This document shows positions 795-8,478 of a stretch of DNA of 8,478 nt, one piece after another. Made by a program: the position numbers and the translations under genes. Where the stretch lies: IMG/VR virus record IMGVR_UViG_2541047850_000013. One strand, given 5' to 3'. Below the pieces are notes generated by a model. That model saw nothing but the letters and a program-made list of their open reading frames with translations, was not told where the DNA came from and made no database searches. How positions within the stretch are numbered: the stretch's first letter is position 1; every line of letters starts with the position of its first letter. This stretch comes from a virus (Duplodnaviria > Heunggongvirae > Uroviricota > Caudoviricetes).

Positions 795-1892
795 TTATGG
801 TATTAATCCAGCTGTTCTTGCTTTATTAATATAATTTTTACAGTGGTTAGCCAAATACTCTGCAAACTTGCATGGAAGTGCATTTCCTATTATGACGCAT
901 ACTTTATCCATCAAAGCTGTATCAAACACATAGTTATCAGGAAAAGTCTGTAGTCTAGCAGCTTCTCGAACAGAAATAGTACGCGTATCCTCAGGATGTC
1001 CATATCGCCCACGGCTTAAAGTTGTGCACCCACCTGTAATCGTAGGCGATACGTCATCCCAAAGCATACGACCATAAACATTACTAAATCCTTTATAGTC
1101 GCCTTTATGGCAATCTGGACGGAGTTCTTCGGGAATACACTCCCAAGACATCCCTGGAACAGCCGCTTGTAACCGCTTTATATTGATCTCAGACAAATCC
1201 CTAACAATATGCCAACTCGACAATGGAAACTTCCCTTGCTTCTTAGCCTGTGAAAGAGTTAAGGGTTTTGGCATATCTCCAATAGCTTCTTTAACAGTTA
1301 CCCATTTGGGTTTCTCTCTTCCATCCTTAGAGTGTGATCCATCAGGCAATGGGATGGCAAATCCTTTTCCTGCCAACAGAACAAGCCTTTTTCTGAACTG
1401 TGGTACACCAAAGTCAGCTACTTGCAAAACTCCATAATTAACTATGTAACCAAGTTTTTTCAATCTCTCAATTACTGGCGAAAGAAGATGATTTCCCCGG
1501 GAAGCTAATCCAGGAACATTTTCCATCATGATTGCTGATGGATTGGTTTCTTCAACCAACCGTAACATCTCGTTAATCAATAAATTACGAGGGTCCTCCC
1601 TTTTATACTTGGCAGTGAGACTAGTAAATCCTTGACATGGCGGGCACGCAGATAAAAGATCTAAATGTTGCTCAGGGATAAGATTTAGGATATCACTCCC
1701 CTTTACAAACCGAATATCTTGAACAAAGAGTTTTGTCTCACGATGATTTGCTTGGAAAGTAGCGGCGGCATGTGCGTCCAGTTCAACGGCAGCTTTGACA
1801 TCAAACCCGGCCATTTTTAGTCCCATGGTTAGTCCCCCACCACCGCTAAATAGGTCAACTGCATTCAAACTGGTCACTGTTTTCTCACTCAT
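795..1892 (-). CDS. DNA (cytosine-5)-methyltransferase, 365 aa
   Basis: All diagnostic C5-MTase motifs in canonical order: motif I DLFSGGGG (aa 13-20, AdoMet binding), motif IV PPCQGF with catalytic Cys86, motif VI ENV (aa 124-126), motif VIII QFRKR (aa 165-169), motif IX RTISVREAARLQTFPDNY, motif X GNALP (aa 336-340). A variable target-recognition region lies between motifs VIII and IX. ATG at 1892 overlaps the upstream gene's stop. Confidence 0.93.
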   Translation of the reverse strand: MSEKTVTSLNAVDLFSGGGGLTMGLKMAGFDVKAAVELDAHAAATFQANHRETKLFVQDIRFVKGSDILNLIPEQHLDLLSACPPCQGFTSLTAKYKREDPRNLLINEMLRLVEETNPSAIMMENVPGLASRGNHLLSPVIERLKKLGYIVNYGVLQVADFGVPQFRKRLVLLAGKGFAIPLPDGSHSKDGREKPKWVTVKEAIGDMPKPLTLSQAKKQGKFPLSSWHIVRDLSEINIKRLQAAVPGMSWECIPEELRPDCHKGDYKGFSNVYGRMLWDDVSPTITGGCTTLSRGRYGHPEDTRTISVREAARLQTFPDNYVFDTALMDKVCVIIGNALPCKFAEYLANHCKNYINKARTAGLIP

Positions 1893-3996
1893 TATTTCCC
1901 AACTTCAACTGTTCTGCCTCATCCAAGAATTCTTGGTGAGTTTGAGTTGTCCTCAGCAAGAACCCTGCCCAATCAACGGGTGTTAGGCGTTTTTCTTCGA
2001 TGTATGCAGTATAAGCTTTACGACGTGCCCCACTCAAGCGCTCCCCATCACTTACCAGCGTAACGTGAAAATCAGATGCTATTGATTTAAAATCATTATG
2101 TCTCTCATCGTTCAAAAACTCCTCGAATGTTTCGAAGTAATTAATAATACGATCCATTTCATCATTGGAAATATAATGATGTGGCTTTTTTATTTCAATT
2201 ATTTGTAATTTTCCATCCTGACTAAACAATACAAAGTCTGGTCTTTTATTTTTTTTATCAAAATCTATAAGAAATATCTCCTCACCAGTTTTCTTTTTAT
2301 AAAATTTTTGAAATTCCCTTTTAAGCGTGGACAACGTTTTATTTGCTGTAACTGGGACCCATTGAGGGTTAACTAGCCACGGAGCGGATGCAATTAGATC
2401 TTGTAACTCATCTTCTGCTGTATCCTTTGCGTCTTTTAAAGACTCGAGACGCTCAATAATCTGAAGACGCTTTTTGACCTTTTGACCAAAACTAACGGTT
2501 TCAGCTAGTTGAGCCGTTGCTAAAATATCGTTGAGAACATTGAGCGGTGTATCCGCTTTACTGGAAGCTTCTATTAACTTCTCATCTAAGGATTGTAATG
2601 GTGCTAACATAATACTTAACTGCACTAAATTCTCGAGTGCATCAGGATCATGTAATTCATCACCTCGTAAAGATTTACCCAACAACTTGGCTATTTTTTT
2701 AGCCTGTGCTCGCATATCCTTTTGACCGGCTCCAGGGTATGCTTGCTCGACCTTATCCTCCACTTGCGCTAATTCGAAGAATTGATTCATCATATTATTT
2801 CTAAGGGGGTCGCGAGTTATTTTACCCACAAGTAAAATAACTTCTTGCCCCCAATTCTGAAATTGCGTTCCTAAATCATCAGACCATAGAATATCCCTTC
2901 TATCAGTTTGGATAAGATCTTCTTTTTCGTCTAACCAGTCAGCATGCAACTCACCTACCAAATATGAACGTATAGAGTGCTCTCCAGTAAAACCAGCTTT
3001 TCTATTAAAAACTGCTGTTTGCGCAGCAAACTTACCTCGGCAATAAATTCTAACACCTGCCATTAACTCGTCCTTATAAGGCTCTTTCGCGTATGCAATC
3101 CAACCTAATATCGGGTAAGCTTTCCCTTCATGTTCAAAACCGGCCTTAACAATTGATGAACGCGTGCCGTCAGGATTAAAAGCCGTATAATCACTTAAAT
3201 CCGTACAAGAATCTGTCGCAATACTTCCACTCATGGAACGAAATTCAATTTTAGAGTTAGGCATAACAGGAACAGTAAACTCTCCGACCTCAACTTCATA
3301 GTCAGGATTAGACTTTGTTTTCGAAGTATCAATCAGTTTAATATTCCAGTTTTTACTCTTCACTCCAAAACGTTGTGAAAGCTGCCGAGATAAATCTTTT
3401 ATTTCGCTAATTTTTCTATATTCAAAATCACTTAATATTATTTTAGTATAGGTCCTGTCACTTAGTGTGCCGTCTAAATCCCCAGTTTCCGGTTTATAAG
3501 ACACTGCAGTATCATCCATTATTTTTTCTTTATCTAGCTGAATATGAGCAACCTCATACCCTTCCTTTCCATCACGACTGATTTTTTCCCCACCGGCACT
3601 TATAATCTCGACCCTTTTACAAACACCAAAAGGTGCTAATTTCCCAACGCCTTTCCGTCCCATGACTTTGCGGTGAAACACCTTCGAGGTTTCACCTCTT
3701 TTTGGATCCTTACGTCTTTCTTTGCCAACAACCAAATAAAAGTTCTGTAGTTCATCAGGCGCCATTCCGACGCCATTATCTTCTACTTCTATTGTGACAT
3801 TTTTTGACCTGACAACACCATCCTGTCTAACAGCCAAGTATTGGCCCATAGGTGCTTTTATAGTGACATTAGTCGCATCTGCATCGTAACTGTTAGATAC
3901 TAATTCGGCTATAACAGCATAAGCCCTGTCATATAATTTCACACCTAATTTATCTACTGTCATCCTTGATATCTGCATTTCATATTGACGCGCCAT
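1885..3996 (-). CDS. GHKL-superfamily (MutL/MORC-like) ATPase with central helical region and C-terminal PD-(D/E)xK-like nuclease motif, 703 aa; candidate restriction/effector subunit
   Basis: ATG at 3996 with AGGA 7 nt upstream. Bergerat-fold motifs: N-box ELVSNSYDAD (aa 31-40), G1 box DNGVGM (aa 73-78), G2 box GRKGVGKLAPFG (aa 113-124). Residues about 440-540 are charged, helix-prone and coiled-coil-like. C-terminus GEEIFLIDFDKKNKRPDFVLFSQDGKLQIIEIKKP gives E573...PD587...E601-x-K603. Stop overlaps the methyltransferase start by 8 nt (ATGAGTGA). Confidence 0.85.
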   Translation of the reverse strand: MARQYEMQISRMTVDKLGVKLYDRAYAVIAELVSNSYDADATNVTIKAPMGQYLAVRQDGVVRSKNVTIEVEDNGVGMAPDELQNFYLVVGKERRKDPKRGETSKVFHRKVMGRKGVGKLAPFGVCKRVEIISAGGEKISRDGKEGYEVAHIQLDKEKIMDDTAVSYKPETGDLDGTLSDRTYTKIILSDFEYRKISEIKDLSRQLSQRFGVKSKNWNIKLIDTSKTKSNPDYEVEVGEFTVPVMPNSKIEFRSMSGSIATDSCTDLSDYTAFNPDGTRSSIVKAGFEHEGKAYPILGWIAYAKEPYKDELMAGVRIYCRGKFAAQTAVFNRKAGFTGEHSIRSYLVGELHADWLDEKEDLIQTDRRDILWSDDLGTQFQNWGQEVILLVGKITRDPLRNNMMNQFFELAQVEDKVEQAYPGAGQKDMRAQAKKIAKLLGKSLRGDELHDPDALENLVQLSIMLAPLQSLDEKLIEASSKADTPLNVLNDILATAQLAETVSFGQKVKKRLQIIERLESLKDAKDTAEDELQDLIASAPWLVNPQWVPVTANKTLSTLKREFQKFYKKKTGEEIFLIDFDKKNKRPDFVLFSQDGKLQIIEIKKPHHYISNDEMDRIINYFETFEEFLNDERHNDFKSIASDFHVTLVSDGERLSGARRKAYTAYIEEKRLTPVDWAGFLLRTTQTHQEFLDEAEQLKLGNNE

Positions 3997-4090
3997 TTAA
4001 ATATCCTTCTAAAAGAGTATTTTTTGCTCAAAAAGGGGAAGTTTATGTTTGACTAACATAGCAAAAAAACTTTCATCTTCAAGAGGTTCA
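3997..4090 (-). promoter_or_regulatory. RBS and AT-rich putative promoter region for the ATPase/methyltransferase cassette
   Basis: AGGA at 4004..4007 (minus strand), 7 nt from the ATG. Upstream sequence is very A+T-rich with weak sigma70-like hexamers (for example TTGAAG-16-TATGTT on the minus strand). No single convincing -35/-10 pair. Confidence 0.3.
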
Positions 4091-4343
4091 CACCAAAAGA
4101 ATTTACCTGGTTCACATAACCAGCTGGATTAGTGTTGAGTTTTGGGTAAACCTGAGGATTGAGAAACCAGTACTGATAAATGGGTATCCGCTGTTTTCGT
4201 CCCTCTCCTGAGCTACCGTGTATTGAAATGGCATCGACACTATTACATGGTAGGAGGTTGTATGTATGGTTTAGATATTTTGCATCTTTCACAGACACTT
4301 TTTACCTTTGCCATATCCTTCCACATTGTTTCTCCGGAAATCA

Positions 4344-4511
4344 CTAACGGTTTGGCATTTGCAGAACCATTATCAGCCATAGCTTCTTGCCGTTAACTTC
4401 GGTTGCACCTGATTGTTGCTCACCTTCAGGCAATGATGGGTTATATACACGGACTGAGCTCACTGCAGTAACAACCTTCCCAGTCAACTTACCTATGCTT
4501 TCAACCATCAT
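4344..4511 (-). CDS. Small hypothetical ORF (55 aa); coding status doubtful
   Basis: ORF-track ORF 4344..4565 trimmed to the first ATG (MMVESIGKL...); listed start is TTG. Weak RBS, and an alternative 46-codon ORF (4240..4380, minus strand) overlaps in another frame. Confidence 0.2.
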   Translation of the reverse strand: MMVESIGKLTGKVVTAVSSVRVYNPSLPEGEQQSGATEVNGKKLWLIMVLQMPNR

Positions 4512-4572
4512 CGTAGCGGCATACTTCCGAATTGCTATTATTTCAATTCTGCACCGTTTGCTCAATGTAACG

Positions 4573-6008: not shown

Positions 6009-6434
6009 TTAGTGCATCACCACAGCATTCCCTGCCGGGCCGCCGCGATTCATCTGGTCATACAAAACAACCGCTGACGCAACAAAATCATCGACATCCT
6101 TCACCAGCCGATCCCTCCGTTCGACGATCTCACGGTAATATTCAGAACTGTGGCTGCGCATACGGGCCACCAGCAAAGGCGGCATCGCCTTTTCGATCGC
6201 CGGTAACAGAGCCTGCATTTTTTCAACAGCATCAGGGGTGTCTTTATCCAGCCAACGGAAAATTTTCTGGGTATTACGGGCCAGGGCTTCCGGATGGCTG
6301 TCGTCGTACAGTTCAGGGAACGTCATCCCCAGTTCGAAATAAGTCCGGGCTATTTCAGCTGCAGGAACTTTCTCACCATCAGGGTATGCCCAGGCATTCA
6401 TCGCCATGCGGATGTGCTCATGTTTGATTTTCAT
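6009..6434 (-). CDS. ydaT: YdaT-like protein (occupies the cII position; family reported toxic when derepressed in Rac prophage), 141 aa
   Basis: ATG at 6434 with AGAGG RBS; N-terminus MKIKHEHI... recalled as characteristic of YdaT-family proteins. Overlaps the upstream cro-like gene by 17 nt. Family assignment is from memory, not a search. Confidence 0.65.
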   Translation of the reverse strand: MKIKHEHIRMAMNAWAYPDGEKVPAAEIARTYFELGMTFPELYDDSHPEALARNTQKIFRWLDKDTPDAVEKMQALLPAIEKAMPPLLVARMRSHSSEYYREIVERRDRLVKDVDDFVASAVVLYDQMNRGGPAGNAVVMH

Positions 6435-6741
6435 GAATCATTTGCCTCTTGATGCTTCGGGTATGATCGTTTTCGTCATTTGGTTGCTTCATCGACATAT
6501 TCTGCGAATAACATGACGAGCGTCGTAAGTATGTCCAATCAACATCAGGACGAAGTTCTTCACACAGGACACCACCTTTTGTTGCTCGTTCAATCGCAGG
6601 ACATCTCTCAGCAGGTAACTGACGTACACCTTTGATCCATTGATTTACGCTTGGAGGAGATACACCTAAAAGCCTAGCCATTGCTGATTGCCCACCGACA
6701 ACAGCACAAGCTCGTTTGAATGAATAGTTATCTTTTTTCAT
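6418..6741 (-). CDS. ydaS: Cro-like HTH regulator of the YdaS family, 107 aa
   Basis: ATG at 6741 with GGAG 8 nt upstream (ORF-track start at 6762 is GTG and was trimmed). HTH region QSAMARLLGVSPPSVNQWIKG followed by the LPAERCPAIERAT motif recalled from YdaS/Cro-like proteins. Divergent from the repressor gene. Confidence 0.8.
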   Translation of the reverse strand: MKKDNYSFKRACAVVGGQSAMARLLGVSPPSVNQWIKGVRQLPAERCPAIERATKGGVLCEELRPDVDWTYLRRSSCYSQNMSMKQPNDENDHTRSIKRQMIHENQT

Positions 6742-6768
6742 CGAATGAACTCCAAAAAACACGCAACA

Positions 6769-6838
6769 ATATTAGGCTTAGCCTAATGAAATTGTCAATA
6801 GGCTATGCCTAATACATCGAGAGTAGGGATTGCCTAAC
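6769..6838. promoter_or_regulatory. OR-like region: three 17-bp palindromic operators overlapping a leftward sigma70 promoter for the cro-like operon
   Basis: Operators ATTAGGCTTAGCCTAAT (6771..6787), AATAGGCTATGCCTAAT (6797..6813) and degenerate AGTAGGGATTGCCTAAC (6822..6838), centres about 25 bp apart. Minus-strand promoter: -35 TTGACA (complement of 6793..6798), 18-bp spacer, -10 TAATAT (complement of 6769..6774). Confidence 0.65.
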
Positions 6839-6865
6839 GCGATGCGCATAGGAGACTATTAAGCA

Positions 6866-7342
6866 ATGCTTAGTGGTAAAGACTTAGGCCGAGCGATAGA
6901 GCAGGCCATTAACAAAAAAATTGCATCAGGAGCCGTCAAATCAAAGGCGGAAATCGCACGTCATTTCAAAGTCCAACCACCATCAATCCATGACTGGATT
7001 AAGAAAGGTTCGATAAGTAAAGACAAACTTCCAGAACTATGGCGTTTCTTTTCTGATGTGGTTGGTCCAGAGCATTGGGGGCTTAACGAATACCCCATAC
7101 CAACCCCATCCACTTCAGATACAAAAAGTGAACTTTTAGACATAAACAGCCTTTATCAAGCCGCCTCTGATGAAAAAAAAGCAATTGTGGCTTTCATCTT
7201 ATCTGGAAATGCTACGGAGCCTAGTTGGGTTGATTATGACGTTCGCGCCTACATTGCCGCAATGGAAATGAAGGTAGCTAACTATCTGAAAAATCAAGAA
7301 TCAAAACGGAAAAGCCAGAACATCACCAAGACAGGAACTTAA
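6866..7342 (+). CDS. racR: CI-like prophage repressor, RacR-like, without an autocleavage domain, 158 aa
   Basis: ATG at 6866 with GGAG upstream. N-terminal HTH KSKAEIARHFKVQPPSIHDWIKKG. No S24 peptidase (LexA-like Ser/Lys) motifs visible. Divergent from the YdaS/YdaT-like genes and flanked by operator sets on both sides; length matches RacR as recalled. Confidence 0.8.
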   Translation: MLSGKDLGRAIEQAINKKIASGAVKSKAEIARHFKVQPPSIHDWIKKGSISKDKLPELWRFFSDVVGPEHWGLNEYPIPTPSTSDTKSELLDINSLYQAASDEKKAIVAFILSGNATEPSWVDYDVRAYIAAMEMKVANYLKNQESKRKSQNITKTGT

Positions 7343-7355
7343 ACTTATATGGTCC

Positions 7356-7378
7356 GACGGGAAATTCCTAGTTCCCGT
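7356..7378 (+). terminator. Stem-loop just after the repressor gene (possible weak terminator or stabiliser)
   Basis: ACGGGAA (7357..7363) pairs with TTCCCGT (7372..7378) around an 8-nt loop, 15 nt after the repressor stop. No following T-run, so terminator function is uncertain. Confidence 0.3.
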
Positions 7379-7416
7379 TAGTTAACTCCTACTACCTCTC
7401 CCACAAACCATCACCT

Positions 7417-7479
7417 ATTAGGTTGCGCCCAAATTATTAGGCATAGCCTATTGACAAGTAATTAGGCATTTCCTATAGT
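7417..7479 (+). promoter_or_regulatory. OL-like region: operator repeats overlapping a near-consensus rightward sigma70 promoter (pL-like)
   Basis: -35 TTGACA (7451..7456), 17-bp spacer, -10 TATAGT (7474..7479). Operator copies ATTAGGCATAGCCTATT (7436..7452), ATTAGGCATTTCCTATA (7461..7477) and a degenerate copy around 7417..7433. A 22-bp segment (7436..7457) is the exact reverse complement of 6792..6813. Confidence 0.7.
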
Positions 7480-7659
7480 TTTCCCATACCAACCCATCCC
7501 GTCCCACACAATACAGGGCAATACCTCGAGTTACCAGGCAGTGGTCAGGGGTTAAGTAGCCAGCCCGAGGCGTATGAACATGACGGCGGGAACACTTTGT
7601 ATAACAGCGCAGCAGGTTTTTGTTCCGCTACCCCGGCGTTAAGGGGAAATGAGGTCAAC

Positions 7660-7812
7660 ATGGATACTATCGATCTTGGCAACAACGAATCTCTGGTGTA
7701 CGGCGTGTTTCCCAACCAGGACGGCACATTCACCGCGATGACGTATACCAAAAGCAAAACGTTTAAAACCGAAGCTGGCGCGCGTCGCTGGTTAGCAAGA
7801 AACTCCGACTGA
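7660..7812 (+). CDS. Small early protein (50 aa), resembling the DUF1391 YdaF/YdfA-like family of Rac/Qin prophages
   Basis: ATG at 7660 with GAGG 5 nt upstream (ORF-track start at 7597 is TTG and was trimmed). Sequence MDTIDLGNNESLVYGVFPNQDGTFTAMTYTKSKTFKTEAGARRWLARNSD. Family assignment is from memory; size and position next to the repressor fit. Confidence 0.55.
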   Translation: MDTIDLGNNESLVYGVFPNQDGTFTAMTYTKSKTFKTEAGARRWLARNSD

Positions 7813-8225
7813 TGAGGTTGACGATGGAATTTAAAGATTTACCAGTACCATTCCAGGAAATGGCATCGAATGTGGTTCGCTCTCAACTGGCGACTCTTGA
7901 CCTGAGTACCGTAGAAAAAGAAACCATCGATAATATATCCGGTAACGTGCGTCGTACCTTTATCGGGCTGTACGAAGAAAAGTTGCCATTCGGTGGACAA
8001 AATTCGCCTGAAAACAAGAATCAAGCGAATGATGAGAAGCTGAAACACGTTATCGCCTTACTACTGGAAGATGCAAAACGTCTACAGCAACTGGAACCAA
8101 ATGCAGGCACCGAAGCCCGCATCTGGATTGCCATAGAATCACTCAAATGTGAAAGCGATGATTATTTAAAAACCATAATTAAAACAACTCAGCTTTCTGA
8201 AGAGCTACCGAAGAAATTGCCATAA
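7812..8225 (+). CDS. Hypothetical early-operon protein (137 aa; 133 aa if started at ATG 7824)
   Basis: ATG at 7812 overlaps the upstream stop (TGATG); the ATG at 7824 has a better RBS (GAGG 6 nt upstream). Acidic, helix-rich composition. No recognisable motifs. Confidence 0.6.
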   Translation: MRLTMEFKDLPVPFQEMASNVVRSQLATLDLSTVEKETIDNISGNVRRTFIGLYEEKLPFGGQNSPENKNQANDEKLKHVIALLLEDAKRLQQLEPNAGTEARIWIAIESLKCESDDYLKTIIKTTQLSEELPKKLP

Positions 8226-8254
8226 TAATATGTTTTCTTATAGAGGGGTTAGAA

Positions 8255-8284
8255 ATATGGGCCAGCATTATAGCAGGCCCATAT
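8255..8284. terminator. Inverted-repeat hairpin between convergent genes (possible bidirectional terminator)
   Basis: ATATGGGCC (8255..8263) and GGCCCATAT (8276..8284) form a 9-bp stem around a 12-nt loop, between the + gene ending 8225 and the minus ORF ending 8305. No clean T-run. Confidence 0.4.
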
Positions 8285-8304
8285 AACAGAAAGTATTTTA
8301 AATG

Positions 8305-8478
8305 TTACGCCGTATCTTGTGATTGTTTTTTAATATATTCATACAAGCGCACAAGTTGTTTCAACTCTTCAAAGCACATAGCGGAATTTTCAATTTTTCC
8401 AGCGTTGATTAGTGCCAGAAGAGCCTGATGTGCGCAAGCATATGGATCAGTTACAGGGCTAATAATATCAACTTGCAT
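8305..8478 (-). CDS. Hypothetical protein, 57 codons visible (may be complete with ATG at 8478 or the C-terminus of a longer gene beyond the window)
   Basis: Open frame from the window edge to TAA at 8305..8307; hand translation MQVDIISPVTDPYACAHQALLALINAGKIENSAMCFEELKQLVRLYEYIKKQSQDTA. Convergent with the rightward early operon. Confidence 0.35.
   Translation of the reverse strand: MQVDIISPVTDPYACAHQALLALINAGKIENSAMCFEELKQLVRLYEYIKKQSQDTA

Follow-up and report, generated by a model that had tools for sequence, protein, structure and literature searches.

Two mirror-image operator-promoter modules flank racR in a Rac-type prophage and probably place both early operons under one repressor

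The DNA analyzed here, a window of 8,478 nucleotides from the viral record IMGVR_UViG_2541047850_000013, very probably carries the immunity region of a Rac-type lambdoid prophage of E. coli, in which RacR silences both of the flanking early operons. The locus is 100% identical to E. coli B2.3, and it shares gene order and 87% DNA identity with the Rac prophage of K-12. The product of racR matched the RacR equivalog of NCBIfam with 244.6 bits (cut-off 200) and is 90% identical in amino acid sequence to K-12 RacR. Divergent ydaS and ydaT were assigned in agreement with the RefSeq annotation of identical and near-identical loci, and the ydaS product additionally matched P22_Cro in Pfam (1e-8) and PHROG 35, a transcriptional repressor. 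The YdaT-box, read on the minus strand, is exactly the K-12 reference box (PMC11879457). A tRNA/tmRNA scan found none. The genes and the box are located as follows:
6866..7342, plus strand: racR, prophage repressor of 158 aa (open reading frame; NCBIfam NF049929)
6418..6741, minus strand: ydaS-like gene, analogue of cro, at the head of the PR-like operon (Pfam PF15943 YdaS_toxin, 3.8e-30)
6009..6434, minus strand: ydaT, CII analogue (Pfam PF06254 YdaT_toxin, 2.8e-10; PHROG 163 CII-like activator, 2e-47)
6424..6441, minus strand: YdaT-box ATGATT-n6-AATCAA at the 5' end of ydaT, with one mismatch to TTGATT-N6-AATCAA
7660..7812, plus strand: first gene of the PL operon, DUF1391 (YdaF/YdfA family), 50 aa (Pfam PF07151, 2.2e-29)

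RacR is a small helix-turn-helix repressor that lacks a self-cleavage domain and in this differs from the lambda CI type; an S24/LexA-like domain is absent from its 158 residues, and the Pfam search gave no family at E <= 0.01. In the literature it is grouped with the small, SOS-insensitive repressors of the Gifsy/DicA type, which are inactivated by antirepressors (PMC3121763; 10.1101/2023.04.14.536235). A preliminary description of the sequence had called the region a lambda OR/OL-like bistable switch. Two operator-promoter modules and a divergent cro-like gene are indeed present, but the bistable and lambda-like induction labels are unsupported because RacR has no LexA-type cleavage domain.

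To map the operators, all 8478 bases were scanned for TAGGC-N3-GCCTA with at most two mismatches. The scan returned 8 matches, 7 of them within 6773-7475. On the left of racR the cores lie at 6773 (0 mismatches), 6799 (0), 6824 (1) and 6860 (2; TAAGC-AAT-GCTTA, across the racR ATG), and on the right at 7438 (0), 7463 (1) and, in degenerate form, 7419 (2). The proposal of operator sets on both sides of the repressor gene thus stood up to the motif scan of the window and related loci, in which the sites cluster around racR and are kept in relatives. The counts changed: the left set, described as three, has four members, one of them over the racR start codon, while the right set of about three comes down to two solid sites, the third being degenerate with a right half that varies among relatives. 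The sites, given without strand, are:
6771..6787: left operator covering the PR -10, ATTAGGCTTAGCCTAAT, a perfect 17-bp palindrome with half-sites invariant among relatives
6797..6813: left operator abutting the PR -35, AATAGGCTATGCCTAAT, inside the left arm of the 23-nt repeat
6822..6838: left operator in the racR promoter region, AGTAGGGATTGCCTAAC, one mismatch, invariant in 13 E. coli-type variants
6858..6874: operator across the racR ATG, ATTAAGCAATGCTTAGT, O3 in the K-12 literature, two core mismatches, palindromic at 7 of 8 positions
7417..7433: doubtful third right site, ATTAGGTTGCGCCCAAA, two mismatches, left half-site alone retained
7436..7452: right operator abutting the PL -35, ATTAGGCATAGCCTATT, the same in homologue locus L007 and the Proteus homologue locus, one base off in Mixta
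7461..7477: right operator over the PL spacer and -10, ATTAGGCATTTCCTATA, with an equivalent site in homologue loci L006, L007 and L009

The operator over the racR ATG holds the same position in every homologue, those of Achromobacter and a Nitrosomonas bin included. The relatives from Mixta, Proteus and a metagenome bin have not kept the doubtful site at 7417-7433. Substitutions among relatives are unevenly distributed: 3 of 72 half-site positions vary, compared with 41 of 87 positions in spacers and central triplets (Fisher p = 2.5e-10), and none of the 16 positions in promoter hexamers does.

Each operator set is interleaved with an outward-facing promoter, and the hexamers and spacings claimed for both, TTGACA-18-TAATAT leftward and TTGACA-17-TATAGT rightward, were recovered by the promoter scan:
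6769..6798, minus strand: PR analogue (PydaST), -35 TTGACA at 6798-6793, 18-nt spacer, -10 TAATAT at 6774-6769, score 10/12
7451..7479, plus strand: PL analogue, TTGACA-17-TATAGT, score 11/12, hexamers invariant in 9 variants

These two are the only promoters in the window with a perfect -35, and the PL analogue is the best sigma-70 match of the whole window. Their geometry is mirrored: the distance from an operator centre to the centre of the -35 is 9.5 bp in either module, and that from another operator centre to the centre of the -10 is 7.5 bp.

The RacR operator system as such is already known, and its left module is established experimentally for the K-12 orthologue. Binding of K-12 RacR was demonstrated there by EMSA and ChIP-qPCR (PMC5700373), and another study gave a DNase I footprint, operators of the form (T/A)TAGGC-n3-GCCTA(T/A), a mapped PydaST, a leaderless racR promoter and the operator over the ATG, named O3 (PMC9638921). 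All four left sites of our window (6773, 6799, 6824 and 6860) fit this published consensus. A further account describes "four operators" and PydaST as TTGACA-18-TAATAT (PMC11879457); primer extension and mutagenesis in K-12 had mapped the same hexamers and spacing as found here (PMC9638921, PMC11879457). PydaST is reported to be nearly silent in vivo even without RacR (PMC11879457), and therefore further control layers exist.

Combining these reports with the arrangement in the window, we propose that RacR, most likely as a dimer, binds 17-bp pseudo-palindromes of the form ATTAGGC-N3-GCCTAAT. At the left module, two sites, one over the -10 and one next to the -35 of the strong leftward PydaST, would allow it to keep the replication genes silent together with ydaS (Cro-like) and ydaT (CII-like); the two further sites, over the racR promoters and start codon, would serve autoregulation. 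The right module would repeat the -35-abutting and -10-covering layout, in mirror image, on an even stronger rightward promoter, predicted to head the early-left operon, which begins with the DUF1391 gene here and in K-12 Rac continues with kil, recET, xis and int. A single protein, RacR, would in this manner silence both early operons. Looping of RacR from OL to OR across ~640 bp is speculative, a guess because no report of the oligomeric state of RacR was found in the literature. The centre-to-centre distance of the modules is 639 bp here and 614-641 bp in relatives, and helical phase is not conserved.

The predicted right module of this prophage, at which RacR would bind and repress, is strongly supported by comparison. 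Left and right modules occur together in 14 of 14 RacR-type viral contigs, and the right module recurs behind racR homologues of 57-63% identity in Mixta, Proteus mirabilis and a metagenome bin. In these relatives two sites spaced by 25 bp are found 90-110 nt past the stop codon, interleaved with TTGAC(A/T)-17-TAATAT or TAACAT. No such pair was found within 1.5 kb downstream in the Klebsiella homologue locus (L008) or in four loci whose homologues share only the N-terminal domain (L010-L013), and therefore the right module is not universal. Expression data from K-12 agree with a repressed rightward operon: when RacR was lowered, ydaF, ydaG, ydaE, racC, kilR, ralA and ydaC rose 40- to 70-fold (PMC6765115, PMC11014345), and a racR CRISPRi study reported a change in the same direction (10.64898/2026.09.06.749655). 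There is also a precedent in the related CP-933P prophage, for which a PL/OL set was demonstrated (PMC8630535). We found no description of the right module in the searchable literature, beyond which an older account may exist, and searches with the operator and leader sequence strings gave no relevant paper; one K-12 paper states that the RacR regulon is still uncharacterised. The modest gain is an explicit map of the right OL/PL module, backed by comparison, which would explain why kilR, recET, ydaF/ydaG and the excision genes rise jointly with ydaS/ydaT upon loss of RacR.

It is possible, though on balance doubtful, that the Cro-like YdaS also uses these sites or is even their main user, in which case the two modules would form a true two-repressor bistable switch like that of lambda. 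YdaS is a member of the P22_Cro/YdaS family and autorepresses in K-12 (PMC9638921, PMC11879457), and in CP-933P the footprints of YdaS and PaaR2 overlap, both proteins regulating PR, PRM and PL (PMC8630535). However, a K-12 study reported no repression of racR by YdaS, in contrast to lambda Cro (PMC9638921), and our literature search gave no YdaS footprint on TAGGC-N3-GCCTA sites. A contribution of YdaS would in any case supplement RacR control and not replace it.

The second alternative concerns the RNA made from the rightward promoter, and the regions that bear on it are:
7356..7379, plus strand: hairpin past the racR stop codon, stem of 8 pairs (the terminal one G-U), 8-nt loop (folding, z = -1.73)
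7380..7415, plus strand: rut-like stretch of the racR 3' UTR, rich in C and free of G (13 C, 0-1 G per 30 nt)
7486..7655, plus strand: conserved non-coding PL leader of ~165 nt, found by comparison, outside the coordinates of the preliminary description

The hairpin had been noticed earlier, after the repressor gene and between the modules, and is present. Its stability is marginal, and its pair G7361-C7374 is A-T in K-12, one compensatory change. We rejected it as an intrinsic terminator, as it is marginally stable and without a U tract, and a terminator scan of 6300-7900 found nothing. The tract that follows it may be inferred as a candidate Rho loading site.

Just beyond the right module lies what is a more novel item than the operators themselves, the apparently structured PL leader. 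It is conserved from the first base predicted to be transcribed, even behind unrelated immunity regions. Of 5426 complete E. coli genomes ~4100 carry it, as do more than 120 viral contigs; the matches in strains derived from K-12 point to two copies, one in Rac and one probably in Qin. Its first ~40 nt are C-rich and nearly G-free (16 C, 1 G per 30 nt), and invariant cores lie at 7554-7571 and 7576-7587. At least two hairpins covary, including H1 (7513-7518/7534-7539, loop CAAUACCUCGAGUUA) and H5 (7632-7634/7644-7646). Covariation was judged on named helices with slid controls; all-against-all column covariation in alignment A3 was uninformative, one diverged clade making nearly all column pairs covary. 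The fold is no more stable than that of shuffled sequence (z = +0.8). An Rfam search of the whole window with all families (E <= 1) found nothing in 6700-7700 and weak chance matches elsewhere, no paper quoting the leader sequence was found, and the leader motifs occur in a single copy in the window, with no second copy on the PR side. A small ORF was rejected, since the 22-codon frame seen here is broken in relatives by a start-codon change and indels, read by eye.

Very tentatively, and at a probability we regard as low, transcription elongation in the early-left operon of Rac/Qin-type prophages could be under the control of this leader as a cis-acting RNA not described before, perhaps a processive antiterminator or a Rho-loading/anti-Rho switch. 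Rather unlikely, too, is the alternative in which the main product of the rightward promoter is a short RNA, regulatory or leader, that Rho stops ahead of the toxic genes in lysogens, repression by RacR being one of two locks. The C-rich start of the predicted transcript, almost without G, and the conserved leader that follows it are in line with this alternative, as is the report that rac kil is kept silent by Rho-dependent termination (PMC4150792); the published Rho terminator trac, however, is located within racR, outside the leader. The leader has the larger potential value; being extremely widespread in E. coli prophages, it would lend itself readily to tests as a regulatory RNA.

The mirror relationship of the two modules is closest at their -35 regions. 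The exact reverse-complement match reported for 6792-6813 and 7436-7457 was confirmed and extends by one more base, to 23 nt (repeat search with shuffle control):
6792..6814, no strand: left arm of the exact inverted repeat (PR -35 and operator)
7435..7457, no strand: right arm of the exact inverted repeat (operator and PL -35)

This is the longest exact inverted repeat with separated arms in the window; in 300 shuffles the longest one measured 12.3 nt on average and never more than 17 nt, and the chance expectation for 23-nt pairs is ~6e-7. The repeat would be the composite "operator plus TTGACA" that serves both promoters, its arms being held identical by the joint constraint of RNA polymerase and repressor, possibly with help from gene conversion. 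We consider it very unlikely that the right sites arose from the left module by duplication or gene conversion and have no function, with the downstream operon controlled by other means. Recent gene conversion could account for the exact 23-nt identity, and E. coli Rac-type loci carry one left-hand unit more than their relatives, which points to duplication events; but the site pair and promoter are retained in genera whose RacR is ~60% identical, substitutions avoid half-sites and hexamers, and the downstream genes are derepressed when RacR drops (PMC6765115).

Exact inverted repeats around a regulator-bearing segment are the typical look of invertible switches, and here a regulator gene does lie on a 620-bp segment between such repeats; nevertheless, that the arms are crossover sites flipping racR is scarcely credible and largely refuted, as the predicted inverted junction (coverage >=80%) was seen in 0 of 1074 E. 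coli genomes matching parts of the query, no recombinase gene is among the neighbouring genes, and the K-12 repeat is broken by one mismatch. The half-sites of that K-12 repeat are still intact, and therefore conservation tracks operator and promoter logic.

Silencing of both operons by RacR, the reading we prefer, resembles several characterized systems. Like lambda OR/OL (CI, Cro), the region has a divergent repressor/cro pair and, spaced 25-26 bp apart, several 17-bp pseudo-palindromic operators that overlap PR as well as the promoter of the repressor gene; downstream of that gene, another set of operators lies over a PL that points outward. A repressor mRNA without a leader (reported for K-12 racR) and a CII analogue with a PRE-like promoter are also shared with lambda. 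It differs from lambda in that RacR has no S24 self-cleavage domain and is not SOS-inducible (a literature grouping, PMC3121763), in the number of sites (four on the left and two solid ones on the right, where lambda has three on each side), in an OR-OL distance of ~640 bp instead of 2.3 kb, and in YdaS being reported not to repress the repressor gene. Also unlike lambda, the region has neither an N gene nor a site recognisable as nut: no N-like gene lies downstream of PL, where the genes are DUF1391 and a PHROG of unknown function, and on the PR side there is no room for a nut-type site between ydaS, ydaT and the next gene.

The PL leader occupies the slot of HK022 putL and lambda nutL, directly after the PL start, and phages Tritos and 666R9 carry HK022-type operators followed by this leader at the putL position of HK022. 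It differs from HK022 put in having no second, PR-side copy and no boxA/boxB-like element. Its identification as an HK022 put antiterminator RNA was rejected, as it has no likeness to putL/putR of AF069308 and position alone is shared.

The Gifsy GfoR/GtgR and Qin DicA systems with Rem (PMC3121763; 10.1101/2023.04.14.536235) likewise have a repressor of ~140-160 aa without a cleavage motif; they differ in that no antirepressor is known for RacR, and none is visible in the 8.5-kb window. CP-933P (PaaR2, YdaS, YdaT; PR, PRM, PL933P; PMC8630535) has the same YdaS/YdaT partners and a lambda-like layout; its PL, which was tested by experiment, has the same -35 and -10 as its PR and is accompanied by OL1-3. 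Its repressor PaaR2, however, is unrelated, its operators consist of GTTTAGTAA repeats, and a toxin-antitoxin pair lies downstream of the repressor.

The closest relative is the racR-ydaS-ydaT region of K-12 Rac (PMC5700373, PMC9638921, PMC11879457), with an orthologous repressor and the same gene order, operator consensus, ATG site, PydaST hexamers and spacing, YdaT-box, right-hand site pair and right promoter. The two loci diverge by 13% in DNA and in the central triplets of the operators. Furthermore, the operators next to the -35 mirror each other exactly between the two modules here and are one base apart in K-12; in K-12 Rac, unlike our locus, a small additional gene, ydaG, separates the leader from ydaF; and a cytosine methyltransferase and a BbrUII/HgiDII-type enzyme stand here at the place of ydaV/ydaW in K-12.

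The 158-aa ORF at 6866-7342 passes the NCBI equivalog model for RacR (244.6 bits, cut-off 200) and is 90% identical to E. coli K-12 RacR; a Pfam search with this protein returned no domain, in particular no S24 peptidase domain. The gene divergent from racR encodes a YdaS/P22_Cro family protein and is followed by that of YdaT, a CII analogue, while the first gene rightward encodes a DUF1391 (YdaF/YdfA) protein. Over region 6400-7700, identity is 100% to E. coli strain B2.3 and 97-98% to further strains, an O157:H7 genome among them. Against Rac of K-12 strains, whose annotation names the genes racR, ydaS and ydaT, it falls to 87%. Of the 5426 complete E. coli genomes, ~1085 contain most of the region. 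On the minus strand, 6424-6441 carries the YdaT-box known from publication (ATGATT-n6-AATCAA). The system is an already known one, namely Rac immunity.

The preliminary description had placed three operators on the left of the repressor gene and about three on its right. When the window was scanned for TAGGC-N3-GCCTA with up to two mismatches, seven of the eight matches fell between 6773 and 7475, confirming clusters on both sides, with four sites on the left and two good sites plus a partial one on the right. Both proposed outward promoters were also recovered.

Operator sites (motif scan) and promoters of the left and right modules
6773, left operator site
6799, left operator site
6824, left operator site
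6860, left operator site, variant TAAGC-AAT-GCTTA spanning the racR start codon
6798..6769, minus strand, leftward promoter TTGACA-18-TAATAT
7419, right third site, left half-site alone kept
7438, right operator site, good
7463, right operator site, good
7451..7479, plus strand, rightward promoter (PL) TTGACA-17-TATAGT

No other promoter was matched in a scan of 6300-7900; these two alone carry a perfect -35 in the whole window, of which the rightward promoter is the best match (11/12). The geometry is mirror-imaged: in each module, the -35 hexamer and one operator are 9.5 bp apart, centre to centre, and the -10 hexamer and the next operator 7.5 bp. The exact inverted repeat reported earlier proved one base longer (23 nt, 6792-6814 versus 7435-7457). 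Among 300 shuffles of the window, the longest exact separated-arm inverted repeat was 17 nt (mean 12.3), and ~6e-7 such 23-mer pairs are expected analytically.

Published mapping and footprinting in K-12 show that the left module is orthologous to an operator-promoter region already characterised by experiment. Krishnamurthi et al. described three GCCTAA/TTAGGC repeats in the racR-ydaS interval, demonstrated that RacR binds, using thermal shift, EMSA, which gave three complexes, and ChIP-qPCR, and found silencing of the ydaS promoter to be RacR-dependent (PMC5700373). Transcription starts were mapped to three racR promoters, the strongest being leaderless, and to a single PydaS with TTGACA and TAATAT, and a DNase I footprint of RacR defined operators O1-O3 as (T/A)TAGGC-n3-GCCTA(T/A), with O3 over the racR ATG (PMC9638921). 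The same study noted an isolated TTAGGC within racR; a lone half-site of this sequence also lies within racR here, at 6884-6889. Another report counts four operators, agrees on the 18-bp spacing, and demonstrates activation of a reverse promoter by YdaT via the YdaT-box (PMC11879457).

Only for the right module, a plain OL/PL analogue, did we find no explicit published description. RacR sites downstream of racR are not discussed in the openly searchable literature, though an older description may exist; PMC9638921 mentions none of ydaF, ydaG, kilR and sieB, PMC11879457 mentions kilR once and neither ydaF nor ydaG, and literature searches by sequence string gave no match. Comparative evidence strongly suggests that the module is functional. 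K-12 retains both sites and the promoter amid diverged surrounding sequence. RacR homologues of 57-63% identity (Mixta mediterraneensis, Proteus mirabilis and a metagenome bin) have a matching arrangement 90-110 nt past the stop codon, in which two TAGGC-N3-GCCTA sites 25 bp apart are interleaved with a promoter (TTGACA or TTGACT, 17 nt, TAATAT or TAACAT). In a sample of 120 viral contigs originally fetched for another purpose, 14 had a RacR-type PL, and all 14 had a RacR-type left module too. Among distinct E. coli-type variants, half-sites varied at 3 of 72 positions versus 41 of 87 for inter-operator spacers and central triplets (Fisher p = 2.5e-10), and promoter hexamers at 0 of 16. The site pair was absent within 1.5 kb of a Klebsiella homologue, and at loci of proteins having the N-terminal domain alone in common. 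Lowering of RacR in K-12 raises ydaF, ydaG, ydaE, racC, kilR, ralA and ydaC 40- to 70-fold (PMC6765115, PMC11014345), and a racR CRISPRi study reports a change in the same direction for recE, recT, xisR and intR (10.64898/2026.09.06.749655). A PL/OL set has been demonstrated in the related prophage CP-933P, its -35 and -10 being identical to those of its PR (PMC8630535).

In non-Escherichia relatives, the three left-hand sites lie over the -10, adjoining the -35 and over the ATG, and the -35-proximal one, TAGGAATTGCCTA, resembles the third Escherichia site, TAGGGATTGCCTA; this likeness indicates that Escherichia loci have one extra unit of ~25 bp. The unit consists of TTGACA and TAGGCTATGCCTA and is a mirror copy of the right-hand composite; in K-12 this copy has a single-base difference, in the central triplet. 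The 23-nt repeat is best explained as a common "operator plus -35" composite that double constraint would hold alike, perhaps with gene conversion also helping. An invertible DNA switch was rejected, as the predicted inverted junction occurred in 0 of 1074 genomes.

The hairpin proposed after the repressor gene is present (7356-7379, 8 pairs). Its stability is only marginally above that of shuffles (z = -1.73; 11 of 200 equally good), and no U tract follows it. One of its pairs has undergone a compensatory change (G-C to A-T) in comparison with K-12, and it has no recognisable counterpart in the Mixta, Proteus and metagenome-bin loci. Directly 3' of it, the tract 7380-7415 (plus strand) is C-rich and G-free (13 C and 0-1 G in 30 nt). 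Given that Rho-dependent termination is known to block read-through from racR towards kil (PMC4150792), we may reasonably infer a Rho-based insulator between racR and PL; Rho may load at this tract and so shield PL and kil from transcription continuing out of racR. The ~18 nt past the racR stop (7343-7360, AACTTATATGGTCCGACGG) recur in similar form as AACTnATnTGGTCnnAnGG across the compared racR-homologue loci (L001, L006-L009) whose proteins are ~60% identical; the remaining 3' region of these loci is unrelated. An exact 13-nt direct repeat, CCCATACCAACCC, at 7094-7106 within racR and 7483-7495 at the start of the PL leader may be due to chance.

Conservation restarts at the predicted transcription start, ~7486, and reaches the DUF1391 ribosome-binding site, the conserved leader spanning 7486-7655 (plus strand). 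Copies of this ~165-nt leader, 85-94% identical, follow repressors and operators of quite different kinds, among others HK022-type operators in phages Tritos and 666R9 and a DicA-type repressor in another phage. About 4100 of the 5426 E. coli genomes match 6400-7700; in those without racR, the match is confined to the leader and the first part of the DUF1391 gene. Reading frames are not kept among relatives, so the leader is non-coding; Rfam gave no match to it, and the window has one copy. The first 40 nt are rich in C and nearly devoid of G. In 63 non-redundant sequences, hairpin H1 (7513-7518 with 7534-7539) has a conserved 15-nt loop, CAAUAC-NNN-GAGUUA, and a stem that varies while complementarity is kept (CUGAG/CUCAG, CGAAG/CUUCG, GGA/UCC); hairpin H5 (7632-7634 with 7644-7646) shows swaps between C-G and G-C. 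Together, seven of their nine pairs have double-sided changes, versus 1.9 +/- 1.0 in shuffles (0 of 500 reach 7) and 2-4 in slid controls. In the window H1 has three Watson-Crick pairs only, most E. coli copies carry tandem A-G/G-A mid-stem, and a single-sequence fold of the leader was no better than shuffles. Invariant cores lie at 7554-7571 and 7576-7587; conservation is built in for the core that served to retrieve the sequences. The leader holds a position equivalent to lambda nutL and the slot of HK022 putL, and is unlike putL/putR in sequence. A structured, conserved PL leader is a lead, not a result, and merits separate study.

Elsewhere in the window, 795-3996 (minus strand) is a restriction-modification cargo of the early-right operon: a C5 cytosine methyltransferase gene (795-1892) overlaps the end of that of a 703-aa GHKL-ATPase protein, whose match to the BbrUII/HgiDII restriction enzyme family scores 237 bits, short of the curated cut-off of 550. 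This arrangement occurs in only 21 of 5426 E. coli genomes, and K-12 Rac has ydaV/ydaW in its place. A strong terminator-like hairpin (757-782, AAAACCCGCCGAAGCGGGTTTT), bidirectional with U tracts on both strands, lies a short way downstream of the methyltransferase gene and accounts for weak chance Rfam matches there. Between the restriction-enzyme and DUF977 genes, ~575 bp (3997-4572) hold no convincing ORF; a hypothetical protein is annotated thereabouts in RefSeq. Another hairpin, ATGGGCC-N11-GGCCCAT (8250-8290), lies between a rightward 133-aa gene (7824-8225) and a convergent ORF (8305-8478, minus strand), in a neighbourhood resembling the K-12 ydaF/sieB arrangement, and PL transcripts would have to traverse it to reach later genes.

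As a mechanism, RacR dimers would occlude the -35 edge and the -10 at both early promoters, and the further left-hand sites, over the racR promoters and ATG, would serve autoregulation; in vitro, the leaderless racR promoter is stimulated by low RacR and protected by higher RacR (PMC9638921). YdaT acts like CII through the YdaT-box. Looping by RacR between the modules is possible but unsupported; they are 639 bp apart here and 614-641 bp apart in relatives, with no conserved phase. Regarding the proposed bistable switch of the lambda OR/OL type, the architecture stands, but bistability and the likeness in induction were over-stated. K-12 YdaS reportedly does not repress racR, and since RacR has no cleavage domain, the lambda route of induction is impossible. 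Published work places RacR alongside the Gifsy and DicA repressors, for which removal is by antirepressors (PMC3121763; 10.1101/2023.04.14.536235).
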